64,000 bases of DNA from Escherichia coli (GCF_050320075.1 NZ_CP190018.1); one strand, 5' to 3'; positions 54,001 to 60,000 are shown, numbered from the stretch's first letter. Made by a program: the numbers.

Positions 54001-57000
54001 GGAAGGGGGCTGTGTCGGGCTGGGAGCTGTAAGGCTGCGATTGTCCGGGTGATGTCTGAACATGCGGTATGTTTGCGTTAAACAAGGGGGGAGTATGTGG
54101 ATACTGATTTTCTGGCTTTCAACACCATATTCAGTGTCATCCAGTGTTGCCAGACAACCAACGCTTGCTGTTCATTCTCAGGAGTTCGCCAGCGAAAGGG
54201 CCTGCAGGAATGCGCTGGCTGAGATGAAGAAGGTGAATGTCGGAGAACTGACCCTGAGGGGGATCTGTGTCTCAAAAGAATAGTGGGGTAGAGGGAGCGA
54301 ACCAGGCTGTTTTATCAGGATGTGATTCTGGAGAGTCCGCTCGCCGCAGTCCGGCGACCGAACGGTAGTGAGCGAGCGGACGAGGAAGCGGAACGTCACA
54401 GTTCTTTCATAATGCACCTACGCTGTGTGGTTACATGGGTAAAGGATGAATATCACCATTCTATATCTGTTTCTGAAAAACAGTTTCGCTTGTTGCCTGT
54501 CATTGCCGGCTGGCGTTAGCATACAGAGGCGGTATTATCCCCTGTGATATTACGGGTTATTTTGTTTTGCTCTGTAAGACCTGGCCAGCTATTATGCTGG
54601 CCTTTTTTGTGGTTTATTGTTCGCAGTCCAGCATTGCAAATAATTTTCGTTTCTGTTCCTTCACATACTCAACATCAACAGTACAATCCAGATAACTTAA
54701 CTCATCTTCTGTCCAGGCATTGATGGATTCTTTTATTCGGTGTGTCACATCCGGTGTGAGTATGTCGCGCATTTTCTCAATGGTATCCCGGCTTATTTCT
54801 CCTCGTGGAGATTCAAGCAGAGGAATTACTGCCTGATGTCCCGGAGGGAGTATAAGACGTAATTCATATTTAAGTGTTTCGTTGAGTAAACGACAGAAAG
54901 CACTGTATTTCTCTTTCCGGGTACTGTTCATCGTTTATTCCTTCTCATTACTGTGCATGGTGTAAGATTAAAGCGTTTTGCAAAAGATGTACAAGTTGTT
55001 TTTATCCGGATTTAATATCATGGACTCACTTTTCTTTTGTGTCAGTGGGTACTGCATTGTTTATTAGCCACGGCAATTGTTGATTACCCTGTATTTTTCG
55101 GATGTAGTTATCAATAATATCTTTTGTTTCATCACTATTATTATAAAAAGATTCAAGTGTGCATATAAAATCATCATTTAATGCAGGTAGCAGGATTATG
55201 TTTTTTACTGTGAACCTGATATGACGATTACTCAGTGTTTTTAAATAAAGTTTCTTTCCAATAACAGGATTTACATTGAAAATATTGTAACAGATTTCCA
55301 CTGTGTTTTCTGAAGGTGCGTATAATACGTATACCGGATATTTTTTATGAAGTTTTATCAGGCAATTTATAAAGTCTAAGGAATTTGTTTGTTTTGCTTT
55401 TTCTCGCATCTTATTTACGTGTTGCGAAAAGAAATATGCTTTTGTAAATATAAAAAGAAAAATAAGCGCAGTGTTTAACAGAAATGTGATGGCAATTGTT
55501 ATAAATAACCATTTACCTGAACCTGTATTAAAGATATGGGATGAAAGATACCCACCTGTCAGCAACAAAAATATAAATAATAATGACTGCATTTTTTCCT
55601 GGTTGTTTATTGATGATTTCAGACACAGAAATATAACAACACATGCAAAGCTCCAGAAAAATATAACAGCAAAATCCATATTATCACCTTTTGTCTGACA
55701 GTTCATTTGTTGATGCTATCACGATATTCGCGATGCGGTAAATATATCAATATGTTGGTTTATTTGTGTAATACATTATTTCCCATATGCCATAAATCAG
55801 TCTGTTGACGATAGCTTTTTTCTTTTGTTATTCTGTTCCCGCATTAACTGTCGCTTCGGCGACCAACCAATCTCCCGGTGGTCTGAGAGGGAGGCTTACG
55901 CGACCACACTGTCATCTCAGGATGACCAGCCAATGTTCCGGCAGTCTGAGAGGAGCGCCTTCGGGTGACTGCAATATCCCATGAGCCTGGAAGAGGATGC
56001 CTATATGGCGGCAACATCCGTTTAGCCTCTGGAAACGGATGTCACCAGTAGCTGGTGACTGAGGTACGTTATTTTTACCTTCGGATTACCCGTACGGTTT
56101 TGTATGTCATGAAACTTACGAGTTTTCCTCTCGCAGAGTGGCGAAATGCCTTATATATCTGCGTCTTAAAGATTTTCTGTCTGGCTGCATGAGCTTCTTG
56201 TGACTGTGCGCACGGCATAAGGCCATTTGAAATTTGGCTGCTTGCGTGTGTACGTGGAGTCTGAAGCTGTGCGGCGTCACTTGCGTGCGACCGGAGGGAA
56301 CACCAAGTGACGCCACAACAATCTGCCCTGAAAGCAGCATCACGTAAGGCCTGCCAGAAAATCGTCGCTCGTGACCAGCGTTCTGATGACCGTTTTGTCT
56401 TTCTGACAGCGTCTTTCAGTAACGTGTCCATGCCTTTCCGGCGCGTCCGTTTTCACGGACGGCCACGCCGGAATGTCTTTTTAAACTTCATAATACATGA
56501 GAGGTAAGTGTATTAACTTGTTGAAAAAAGGAATAAATATGAAAAATCGTTCTGATGTCGGAAGGCGTCATCGTAAGATGACGGGGAGTAAAAAATCGCC
56601 CTGGTGCACAGGTAGCGAACTCCTGTAAAAACTCAACATGTGCAAGCTCTGCTACATCAACATCAAACGAGCCAGGAAGGCGAGCAACCGCGTTACAGAG
56701 CCGTCCGTGATGACGAAAAACTAACAATATCAACGATCTGGTCTGTTTATCGGAAGGGCATCTCATGCAGTTGAACTTTCAGAACGGATGGTTTTCTGCA
56801 TCTTTTTTAACAGGGGGATTGACGTTATGTCCCGTAAATCGTCACGTTCCAAAGTTGAAGTCTTTCGCAAGTCATTCATCTCACTTGCCCGTGATTGTGG
56901 TGGCAGCTACGCAACAACCGCTGACAGAATGCGAATTGCCAGATACTTTTTGAATTATTTGCAAGTAAACGGTATCAAACTTCGTCAGACGGGCAGTATT

Positions 57001-60000
57001 AAGACGAGGCATATTTCTGGTTATCTTCTCAGCAGGAAAGAGCAGGGGATCTCTCACCGCACAATTCAGAATGAACGGGCAGTTATGCGCGCAATTCTGG
57101 AGAAAGATGGTCGCCTTAAAATAGCGGATCCGTCCAATCCTTTATTGAGCAATGAAGCTCTTGGACTCAGGGATACATGCCGTGATGGTAAAAAGATACC
57201 ACTCTCACAGGATGAGTTTAATAAAGCCTTCAGTAAGGTTGAAAAAAATAATCCCGGTGTTGCTGCAGTAATGCAACTTTCTTATGTTCTTGGACTGAGG
57301 ACAAAAGAAGCTGTTCAGTCTTGTAAATCAGTTAACTCGTGGCTACGTGAACTTGATTCAGGGCATGATTCTCTTCTCGTTGTTTTTGGGACGAAAGGTG
57401 GAAGGCCCAGAGATACAACGATCATTAATCGTGATGCAGTGAAACATGCGCTCATTTATGCAAAAAACATTATGGATAAACAGAATGGTAAACTTATCGA
57501 TCGCCCCAATATTAAACAGGCTATAAACGTATATCGTTACCATGTAAGAAAGGCTGGTTTATCTGGAGTGAAGGCACCACATAGTATGCGTTATCATTTT
57601 TCGCAGGAAGCAAGGCAGTTTTATCGAAAAAGTGGATATGGAGATAAAGAAATTTACGCAAGGGTTTCCATGGACCTTGGTCATGGTGACGGAAGAGGGC
57701 GTTATGTAAAACAGGTCTACTTTAAAGGCGCTGATGAGAGCTGATATTTAAAATGAATCCGGAGGATATGTGTTTTTCGCGAACTTATTAATTTCTGTAA
57801 TAAGAATTTCTGATGAACGATTACACATGCTCTCATTAAAGTATCCTATATGGCATTCATGGATGCGGCAATTTAGTTTTCTGGATAGCCATCTGTTTGC
57901 CTCGTTACGGGATATATTTGTTTTTTGCTGATAGCTGTCAAAAAGTTTACGAACTTGTGCTCTGAGTATTCTCAAATTTTCTTTAGCTGGAGTACCTAAT
58001 GGTCTCCCTGAATTTTTATGACATCCAACCTATGCATTGCATGGGCTGCAAATCCAGTAATATTTGTTTTCTGTAGTGGGTGTCGAGGAAAATGGCATAA
58101 GTGCACCTTTTCTGAGTTGTGCCTTATTACCACAGTAAGTGCAGATTACAATTGGACGAACATCTGCAATATTCAGTGCTGCATAAGTCAGACGTTCATT
58201 TTTCATCATGTTTCGTTTTCCACAGTCAGTGAGAATATGCTTTATTGTGTCTAATTCTTCTCGGAGTATTTTTGAACGGACACCAGTTCGATAACGCTGT
58301 TGAAAGTAAAGCTCAATATGACGTAGTTTTATACTATTTATTGATTTTATCTGTATATTGGATTCTTAAAGAAATGAAGCAAATCTTCTGGCTCTCCCCA
58401 TATATACCAGTATGTCTTCTGGTGTCGGGGCGCATGCTTTAGCTATTTTTGATTAGTTCATCTTTTAATTTTTTGTATTTCGATTTCATCCTGATATTTC
58501 TCTTTAAGGTTCATTAAGAGTGTTACTGAGTAAAAAAATATCAAATTAAGTATTTATTGTCATTCAGTTGTAGCTTCTCAGCAGCTCCACGACAATAACA
58601 ACTTGAAGTTTTATGCAGTTTGTGCTTACAATTTAAACGCTAACTTGTCGCTTCGGCGACCAACCAATCTCCCGGTGGTCTGAGAGGGAGGCTTACGCGA
58701 CCACACTGTCATCTTCGGATGACCAGCCAATGTTCCAGCAGTCTGAGAGGAGCGCCTTCGGGTGACTGCCAGCTAATGTTTCAGCGATCTGAGAGAAACG
58801 CCTTCGGGTGATTGCAATATCCTCGTAGCCTGAAAGGGGATGCCTTTATGGCGGTACATCCGTTTAGCCTCTGGAAACGGATATCACCACTGGTGATTGA
58901 GGTACGTTACTACCAATACCGGATTTATCGGTTACATTTCTTAATTAACTCTGCTGGCTGTATTGTCACCAGTCAGCATTACCTGACGGATTTTCCAGTC
59001 CGTCAGGGCGGAACGTCCGTCTTTTATCCGGAGGTTCCGATGTTTATTCCACTTCTGTTTCGCGCAGAGATGCGCCTGACACCTTTCTTTCAGCGACTCA
59101 GACAACGTCTGTGTTATCCGGTGAGTCGTGTTCATACACAACATCCCTGGTCTTCTCCACAGTTGCGGCACCTTTACTGCACGCCGTGGTTTGTTAACGC
59201 CACCGGCAATCTGGCAGTCCGTGCCTGCATTGTTTCCATTGACGGTTCTTTGCGACACTGCTTTGAGTTCCGTGAAGGCTCTCACAGCCGTGAATACCGT
59301 TTCTGGTTTGAGGCGCTTCCTTTGTCGGTACTGCGTTTTAACGCTTTTACCGGTCGAATATCCGATCGCCGTACACTCTCTGCTGCCTCCCGTATGGCCG
59401 CGCAGCTTACTTCCTTTCGCTATCGCTTCGGTTTGCGCTGAAGCTGTTTGAGGTCGTTATGACCGTCATTTTCTCTACGAGCAGCGTTGTCTGATCGCGC
59501 CATTCAGAACGCGATGACAAAGCTGATTTTTCCTTAACCCGTCCGGGACCGCTTCCGTTCGGGGAACGGTCTCTCTGTTTCTGGAGATTGTTTATGGGAC
59601 TCGATATTTTTTTCCTTGGGCGTGATCGTGTTTGTGTTACCGACGCAGTGGTATCGGTACCGGAAACGCGGGAAGTGGGGTACTTTCGCAAGGTTAACCC
59701 ACTGATTGCCTGGTTTGAGAAGCATTGTGGACCGGTTGAAAATGCCGTGGAGCGTCCGGTTTCCAGAACGGAACTGGAGGCACTACTGAGCGATCTTGAA
59801 TGCCTTACGCCGGAGAACTGCCGGGAATTCTTCCCCACAACAGAAGGATTCTTTTTTGGCTCTCAGGAGTATGACCAGTATTACTGGAAGGATGTTGAGG
59901 ACGTGAAGTCGTGGGTCAGACGCACGCTTGATTCGTTTGATTTTGAACGAAAAATACTGTTGCTCTGGGCATGGTGGTAACTATTTCTCAGTCCTTGTTT

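Follow-up and report, generated by a model that had tools for sequence, protein, structure and literature searches.

A 64,000-nt stretch of Escherichia coli DNA (GCF_050320075.1, NZ_CP190018.1; "the window", with positions counted from its first letter) holds a gene for a small tyrosine recombinase between two direct copies, B and C, of a structured sequence, and a third copy, A, lies 28 kb away. Do these repeats make an excisable or invertible cassette of the interval, as a preliminary description made from the sequence alone proposed, or is each copy simply a leader for the gene downstream, as the same description also suggested? The arrangement itself, with its flanking direct repeats and distant third copy, was confirmed by repeat search and alignment. 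The alternative of separate leaders fits all three copies, and the excision model is not supported. We consider it probable that the copies, which belong to the RNA motif STAXI, are the 5′-terminal structured domains of separate transcripts, each with its own sigma-70 promoter, and that they act on the RNA itself. The finding thus rediscovers two catalogued RNA motifs, STAXI and EFASI, in their documented neighbourhood, and no new kind of element.

The three copies are 220-265 nt long and lie on the + strand (Table 1). In a three-way alignment, the similarity among them begins at 27304, 55849 and 58646, the positions at which a 124-nt repeat family common to all three was also found, and stops at about 27566, 56070 and 58909. 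In the repeat search, 249 nt of copies A (27318-27566) and C (58660-58908) matched with 99% identity; copy B has the same make-up as these two but for one 46-nt unit that it lacks. Copies B and C are 2,797 nt apart. The similarity among the copies is far beyond chance. In an Rfam scan of the window, all three copies matched STAXI (RF01728) on the + strand, with scores (Table 1) to be compared with a gathering threshold of 40.5 bits.

STAXI stands for Ssbp, Topoisomerase, Antirestriction, XerDC Integrase; in its published description, a pseudoknot occurs two or three times over, close to genes of these kinds (PMC2864571). The window copies are members of this family, with tandem pseudoknot units, UUCG loops and the same neighbouring genes. 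Copy A lies between the topoisomerase III gene and replication-protein/ssb genes, copy B before the integrase (recombinase) gene, and copy C before ardA; these are exactly the gene classes in the motif's name, and the host, E. coli, is within the Enterobacterales. In copy A, a 5′ hairpin is followed by three or four pseudoknot units in tandem, and these by a 3′ pseudoknot domain; by alignment, an extra 5′ hairpin and the first unit lie upstream of the span of the Rfam model. There are two to four units per copy in the window and 1 to 4 or more across the loci compared. Beyond what has been published for STAXI, we found a promoter at a fixed distance, the strand that folds, the extra 5′ hairpin and unit, a form with a single unit, and concerted evolution of the copies. 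No STAXI-like sequence was found in phage records at the sensitivity of blastn.

For analysis of covariation, we took 20 STAXI copies from seven genera and aligned their 33 distinct pseudoknot units over the outer stem, the inner hairpin and the pseudoknot. Of all cells, 97.4% were paired, and 11 of the 14 pairs had changed on both sides. Compensatory changes were seen in 5 of 5 pseudoknot pairs and 6 of 6 outer-stem pairs. None of 500 shuffles reached the observed values, and partners slid out of position were paired in only 34-51%. The folding strand was identified as the sense strand of the downstream genes, because 44 G·U but only 4 A·C pairs were counted on it. Minimum-free-energy folding of copy C, which cannot show pseudoknots, added little.

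The similarity among the copies starts where transcription is predicted to start. Sigma-70-type promoters (Table 1) were predicted to stop 13-14 nt before each of the three copies, so that the promoter sequence lies outside the repeat. In 22 of 27 copies from seven genera, a site with at least 8 of 12 matches ended 28-38 nt before the first unit, a result obtained at 3.8% of random positions. For copy B, the position of the −35 hexamer TTGACG is kept in orthologous loci. Upstream of copy A, its promoter is preceded by an intrinsic terminator with an 11-bp stem (27218-27243), downstream of the topoisomerase III gene. A ribosome-binding site (RBS) and a start codon lie 115-130 nt beyond copies A and C.

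Copy B is followed by a much longer leader. The preliminary description had taken most of the interval between B and C as poor in open reading frames (ORFs) and decayed, with a small basic 29-aa ORF (56539-56628) containing a hairpin. That hairpin, CGTCATC-GTAA-GATGACG, is present at 56566-56583, and we found that the segment around it matches Rfam EFASI (RF02957) on the + strand, at 70.7 bits against a gathering threshold of 51.2. As quoted in PMC12370729, EFASI stands for "Enterobacteriaceae, Frequently Around STAXI and Integrases", and the motif lies several hundred bases 3′ of STAXI and upstream of integrase genes. The motif in the window is a member of this family in the position that the family description states, with 477 nt between it and STAXI B and 157 nt between it and the recombinase ATG at 56827. 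Both motifs have been detected by reverse transcription quantitative PCR (RT-qPCR) in cDNA from outer-membrane vesicles of an E. coli strain (PMC12370729).

STAXI, EFASI and the sequence between them look like a single leader, conserved throughout, in which further hairpins covary. In its middle part, hairpins were found at 56273-56314 (GGCGTCACTTG...CAAGTGACGCC) and 56438-56471, and compensatory changes were seen in a copy on a Pantoea plasmid. In EFASI, 15 of 19 predicted pairs had compensatory changes. No further promoter-like site was found on the + strand between copy B and the recombinase gene. Because the hairpins, EFASI and the recombinase gene succeed copy B without another such site, 55849-56826 was identified as a conserved, structured non-coding leader of about 950 nt, made of STAXI, the middle hairpins and EFASI. 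The description as decayed therefore does not apply to this part; it holds only for the minus strand of 57751-58489, which carries a pseudogene. In both motifs the pattern of covariation is that of a folded single strand, and a duplex protein-binding site does not fit it.

Two ORFs in this leader were considered as genes and rejected, since neither their start codons nor their reading frames are conserved. The 29-aa ORF lies inside EFASI, has no ATG in Serratia and Cedecea, and is reduced to ATG-TAA in E. coli ACN002; a 66-aa ORF at 56307-56507 is broken by indels in other genera. The EFASI hairpin was also ruled out as a duplex binding site of the recombinase, because its stem covaries while its loop ranges from 4 to more than 20 nt across loci.

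We compared 16 distinct recombinase loci with homologues 53-100% identical, from E. coli, Salmonella, Serratia, Cedecea, Yersinia, Erwinia, Xenorhabdus and Photorhabdus. A scan of representative genomes with a single protein gave four loci, and the more distant ones were obtained by protein search and contig look-ups. EFASI was upstream of the recombinase gene in all 16 loci, in the order STAXI, EFASI, recombinase. The upstream STAXI reached the Rfam threshold in 12 of these loci; in the remaining four, it was in a reduced form with one variant unit and the 3′ domain. A downstream STAXI was less constant. It was present in 9 of the 14 evaluable loci (five genera) and missing in Cedecea, Photorhabdus and three Xenorhabdus loci. 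The distance from the recombinase gene to the downstream copy was about 0.3 to 1.6 kb, with a cargo that differed between elements (a zinc-finger gene, a GIY-YIG nuclease gene, hypothetical genes, an IS2). Where gene calls exist, several small genes in a row came after the downstream STAXI and led up to ArdA or ArdC. In Xenorhabdus budapestensis, two copies of the recombinase unit share 1.88 kb, from promoter to terminator (L025 and L026, both 6166-8040), and have no downstream STAXI.

Motif identity, RNA-type covariation, folding of the sense strand, conserved promoters and conserved gene order are what we observed. They can be accommodated if copy A heads the replication-protein/ssb unit, copy B begins the leader of the recombinase gene, and copy C heads the ArdA operon. 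Copies B and C would then bracket the recombinase gene because two neighbouring units, that of the recombinase and the anti-restriction operon, both start with STAXI. Each RNA would fold into a 5′ hairpin and then tandem pseudoknots, and would act in cis on its own transcript. The fold would protect the 5′ end of the transcript, and would also serve as several equivalent binding sites for one shared factor. In this way ssb, anti-restriction and recombinase genes, all of which concern incoming DNA, might be jointly controlled after transcription.

Several points weigh against such transcript leaders, among them the evolution of the copies. We compared STAXI copies within and between nine elements (the window and L005, L009, L010, L011, L013, L016, L020 and L021). 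Copies within an element were nearest relatives in 7 of the 9 elements, with 72-100% identity, while copies at the same position in different elements had a mean identity of 65%. Therefore, the copies either exchange sequence or co-evolve with an element-specific partner. This homogenisation shows that DNA exchange between the copies occurs, and it speaks for gene conversion or homologous exchange rather than for site-specific excision. The earlier idea that the copies could mediate exchange thus survives in a weaker form.

A second point comes from small plasmids. STAXI and EFASI were found together on p3 (of E. coli 64.1), pLH50-c-F, NZ_CP135677.1, NZ_CP135679.1 and ColE1-type plasmids of Pantoea and Rahnella. 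These have four backbones, of which one is of a rolling-circle Rep type (p3), two are of ColE1 type (Pantoea and Rahnella) and one is untyped, and none of them has a recombinase gene or a downstream gene on the same strand. Therefore, the RNA, or the DNA encoding it, has a role independent of a downstream gene. This occurrence favours action in trans or some autonomous function, and is the chief observation that a simple leader model leaves unexplained. The promoter is kept on the Pantoea plasmid (8 of 12 matches) and more weakly on the Rahnella plasmid (7 of 12). The STAXI of p3 is 99-100% identical to copies A and C of the integrating conjugative element (ICE) to which the window belongs, and the rest of the p3 module is about 90% identical to the region after copy B. 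The same ICE is also in the chromosomes of strains 64.1 and TUM9803; NZ_CP135677.1 and NZ_CP135679.1 have accessions in the series of the TUM9803 chromosome and are apparently plasmids of this strain. The CTTGATA nick sequence of rolling-circle plasmids of the pC194/pUB110 type was absent from p3. The STAXI-EFASI module was also considered as the single-strand initiation site of the ColE1-type plasmids. The paper on the Rahnella plasmid mentions such a site but gives no position for it, and a gene separates the predicted origin from the module.

Three further points concern the leaders themselves. The promoters of the island are consensus matches, and the transcript starts are thus predicted ones; the shared binding factor is likewise a predicted one; and five pseudoknots exceed the need of a simple stabiliser.

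The plasmids could be accommodated if STAXI, with or without EFASI, were a stand-alone non-coding RNA acting in trans, whose position before genes is secondary. Such an RNA could be a multi-site sponge for a protein of the host or of the ICE, or could aid the establishment or defence evasion of a newly arrived element. Retention of the module and its promoter on plasmids without the recombinase is consistent with this, as is the number of units, which varies as would be expected for repeated binding sites. Both motifs are classed as sRNAs in Rfam, and EFASI has been described as probably trans-acting; both were among the highest concentrations measured by RT-qPCR in the vesicle preparations (PMC12370729). 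However, no intrinsic terminator closes STAXI in the window, where copies A and C continue to the next RBS, and a link in cis is suggested by the constancy, from genus to genus, of the classes of downstream gene. We therefore regard a stand-alone RNA as possible but unlikely.

In type III toxin-antitoxin systems with ToxI-like arrays, a short RNA that forms a pseudoknot is repeated in tandem behind a promoter. The promoter and tandem pseudoknot repeats of STAXI may resemble these arrays. They differ in that STAXI stands before genes of several kinds (ssb, recombinase, ardA), without an annotated ToxN-type endoribonuclease among them, and in that the STAXI repeats, of 45-46 nt, are interrupted by hairpins.

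Another explanation places the fold in DNA. STAXI would act as folded single-stranded DNA during transfer or replication, either as a priming or initiation signal or as a single-strand promoter like Frpo of plasmid F, by which ssb, ardA and the recombinase gene would be switched on as the ICE enters a new cell. A role in single-stranded DNA was raised by Weinberg et al. in 2010 (PMC2864571). The genes ssb and ardA/ardC are classic leading-region genes with single-strand promoters in plasmids (PMC11541004), and the motif is on plasmids of rolling-circle Rep type and of ColE1 type, which expose single strands. As with Frpo and single-strand initiation (ssi) promoters in the leading region of conjugative plasmids (F, ColIb-P9), dispersed direct repeats each precede establishment genes such as ssb and ardA. 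Frpo, however, is a long imperfect hairpin of the transferred (template) strand with the −35 and −10 boxes in its stem (PMC11541004). The wobble bias puts the STAXI structure, with its pseudoknots, on the sense strand, whereas a single-strand promoter needs the template strand, and the −35 and −10 hexamers are in unpaired, non-repeated sequence upstream of the structure. UUCG loops and pseudoknots are typical of RNA (PMC2864571), and both motifs were detected by RT-qPCR on vesicle cDNA (PMC12370729). A function as folded DNA is therefore improbable.

Still less probable is that B and C are the target sites of the recombinase that they enclose, so that a 2.8-kb circle is excised, or modules are swapped between ICEs and plasmids. 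An invertible cassette could be dismissed at once, as direct repeats could not yield inversion. For excision, we searched for the deletion junction (55300-55972 joined to 58770-59500) and the circle junction (58100-58769 joined to 55973-56600). Among 5,426 complete E. coli genomes with their plasmids, none had either junction, although assemblies would miss rare events; about 50 E. coli records carry the full arrangement of B, recombinase gene and C. The third direct copy, 28 kb away, lies across the transfer genes, and recombination with it would delete them. Excision is thus without support, because of both the missing junctions and this copy. In the nine loci of five genera where direct copies bracket the recombinase gene, its catalytic residues are intact, and the content between the gene and the downstream copy is variable, as it might be in a cassette; the homogenised copies, and the small plasmids that are co-resident with the ICE and share sequence with it from the 5′ end of STAXI, would fit as well. 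Flanking, which the preliminary description had expected of homologues if the copies were sites, held only in part, since five of the 14 evaluable loci lacked the downstream copy. Moreover, the motif stands beside ssb without any recombinase, its covariation and conserved promoters are those of an RNA and it has no conserved duplex core site, and the similarity of the repeats runs out at the transcript start and is not broken at a crossover point inside them.

These differences also separate the locus from known modules of recombinase and site. As in intI/attC, Cre-loxP and Xer-cer/dif, a small tyrosine recombinase without an arm-binding domain has a conserved structured sequence just upstream of its gene. 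Unlike in those systems, no recombination product was found, and the element upstream has a promoter of its own and shows the covariation of an RNA. We identified no inverted-repeat core with a 6-8 bp spacer.

That the STAXI-EFASI leader serves the PF12835 recombinase as a cofactor or substrate, in the form of a guide-like RNA or of folded single-stranded DNA like integron attC, is compatible with the constant linkage of EFASI (16/16), the variable cargo, the homogenised copies and the co-residence of plasmids and ICE, but we give it very little credence; if it were true, modules headed by STAXI would be exchangeable between ICEs and the enzyme-free STAXI-EFASI plasmids.

The negative result matters for annotation, because the repeats that flank this recombinase gene should not be labelled att sites or a mobile cassette. 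Its by-products, namely a promoter for each copy, a fold on the sense strand, a long leader of STAXI and EFASI, concerted evolution and survival on recombinase-free plasmids, bear on the role of STAXI, a question standing since 2010. They make the questions "RNA or DNA?" and "cis or trans?" simple to test at the bench.

Table 1. Features of the window and of small plasmids carrying both motifs (L numbers denote loci compared)
Feature	Position	Strand	Evidence or remarks
Promoter of copy A, sigma-70-type, TTGACT-17-AAAAAT	27263-27291	+	after terminator 27218-27243
STAXI copy A	27304-27566	+	RF01728, 139.2 bits at 27365-27518; repeat families D3, D4; alignment
Genes led by copy A	27686-29023	+	STY4534-family ICE replication protein 27686-28150, small hypothetical gene, ssb 28466-29023
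Promoter of copy B, sigma-70-type, TTGACG-18-TATTCT	55805-55834	+	TG upstream of −10; predicted start ~55841
STAXI copy B	55849-56070	+	RF01728, 89.1 bits at 55910-56069; one 46-nt pseudoknot unit fewer
Middle part of recombinase leader	56071-56546	+	conserved, non-coding; nine loci from four genera aligned
EFASI RNA motif	56547-56669	+	RF02957, 70.7 bits; holds the 29-aa ORF and the hairpin 56566-56583
Tyrosine recombinase gene, 305 aa	56827-57744	+	PF12834 and PF12835; two domains, no arm-binding domain
Pseudogene, convergent with recombinase gene	57751-58489	-	tblastn 79% identity; two in-frame stops, one frameshift
Promoter of copy C, sigma-70-type, TTGAAG-18-TACAAT	58603-58632	+	predicted start ~58639
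STAXI copy C	58646-58909	+	RF01728, 138.1 bits at 58707-58860; 99% identical to A
Operon led by copy C	59041-60908	+	first gene (GGAGG, ATG at 59041), two small genes, ardA 60399-60908
Small plasmid record NZ_CP059920.1 (L003), 3.1 kb			STAXI and EFASI
Small plasmid record NZ_CP100506.1 (L004), 5.3 kb			STAXI and EFASI
Pantoea pOC5aC (L014)	STAXI 4374-4529, EFASI 4686-4834		
Rahnella pHW4594 (L015)	STAXI 5123-5278, EFASI 5601-5750		

The recombinase gene is real, as the preliminary description had it. Its product matched Integrase_1 (PF12835, 5.7e-53) and Phage_int_SAM_2 (PF12834, 1.1e-22), and R158, K190, H252, R255, H286 and Y293/Y298 were invariant in 26 homologues, down to 53% identity. 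Its predicted fold (pLDDT, the predicted local distance difference test score, 87.9) matched IntI4, lambda Int, Tn1549 Int, Cre and XerH at 12-19% identity. It is an ordinary two-domain tyrosine recombinase. A search of the PDB by sequence gave no significant match to it. NCBIfam gave none for the recombinase or most of its neighbours, the sole match being a partial one, far below cutoff, to the zinc-finger fragment; and the literature on PF12835 yielded nothing beyond an annotation remark.

The pseudogene that converges with the recombinase gene has an intact counterpart in E. coli SCU-171 (L009 7956-8687). A Pfam scan of the intact copy, which encodes 243 aa, found an N-terminal Phage_int_SAM_2 domain and a DUF3268 zinc finger. 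The former is similar to the N-terminus of the recombinase (about 25% identical, E 3e-7). The zinc-finger protein could be an accessory DNA-binding partner.

Outside ICEs, the recombinase unit was seen in X. budapestensis, Photorhabdus (L018) and X. bovienii (L027), where it adjoins contact-dependent toxin genes, clusters for nonribosomal peptide synthetases or polyketide synthases, and defence-like genes. STAXI in the Xenorhabdus and Photorhabdus units has one variant unit and the 3′ domain, below the Rfam threshold. The recombinase family has several members per Xenorhabdus genome.

Some annotated ORFs overlap STAXI. A 197-aa protein in RefSeq (58848-59441) begins inside copy C, and GGAGG with the ATG at 59041 suggests that the true start is there. 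A small ORF (27506-27643) is likewise annotated across the 3′ end of copy A. The sequences 3′ of copies A and C differ, except for a hairpin CYGACGG-loop-CCGTCAGGG just before the RBS of the first gene (27607-27636 and 58982-59008).

The window is part of a chromosomal ICE of the SPI-7/PAPI-1 type, as seen from the RefSeq annotation of the identical island in NZ_CP123240.1 (strain YZLc1-3), from which the gene names were taken; 55600-59400 is 100% identical to that strain. In NZ_CP123240.1, the island adjoins a tRNA-Ser gene. The order of genes in the ICE is parA, dnaB, parB, replication proteins, topoisomerase III, ssb, a long transfer block to traG, and an accessory region that contains the small integrase gene and ardA. 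Window coordinates equal those of the NZ_CP123240.1 locus after 29203 and have an offset of +2707 before it, because the window lacks an IS66 copy that NZ_CP123240.1 has. This insertion (ISCro1) in YZLc1-3 is just upstream of a group of direct repeats at 29725-30515, beside an Rpn-family nuclease gene. One repeat family there is 257 nt long (95% identity, 382-nt spacing) and the second 153 nt (85% identity, 430-nt spacing). In another part of the ICE, a hypothetical gene between an STY4528-family replication gene and a PFL_4669-family gene contains at least 25 tandem units of 36 nt, or 12 codons each, which are 84-94% identical (23090-24253).

A gene for a type B (zinc-independent) ribosomal protein L31 is in the accessory region upstream of copy B (53574-53837), and is also present in the related islands L009 and L023. 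A lone STAXI in an ICE remnant is carried by about 600 E. coli genomes, most of them O157 or other Shiga toxin-producing E. coli, as in the tellurite/urease island of E. coli O157:H7 EDL933 (L023 6989-7140). The genes for type B L31 and hok precede this STAXI, and IS66 copies cut it off.

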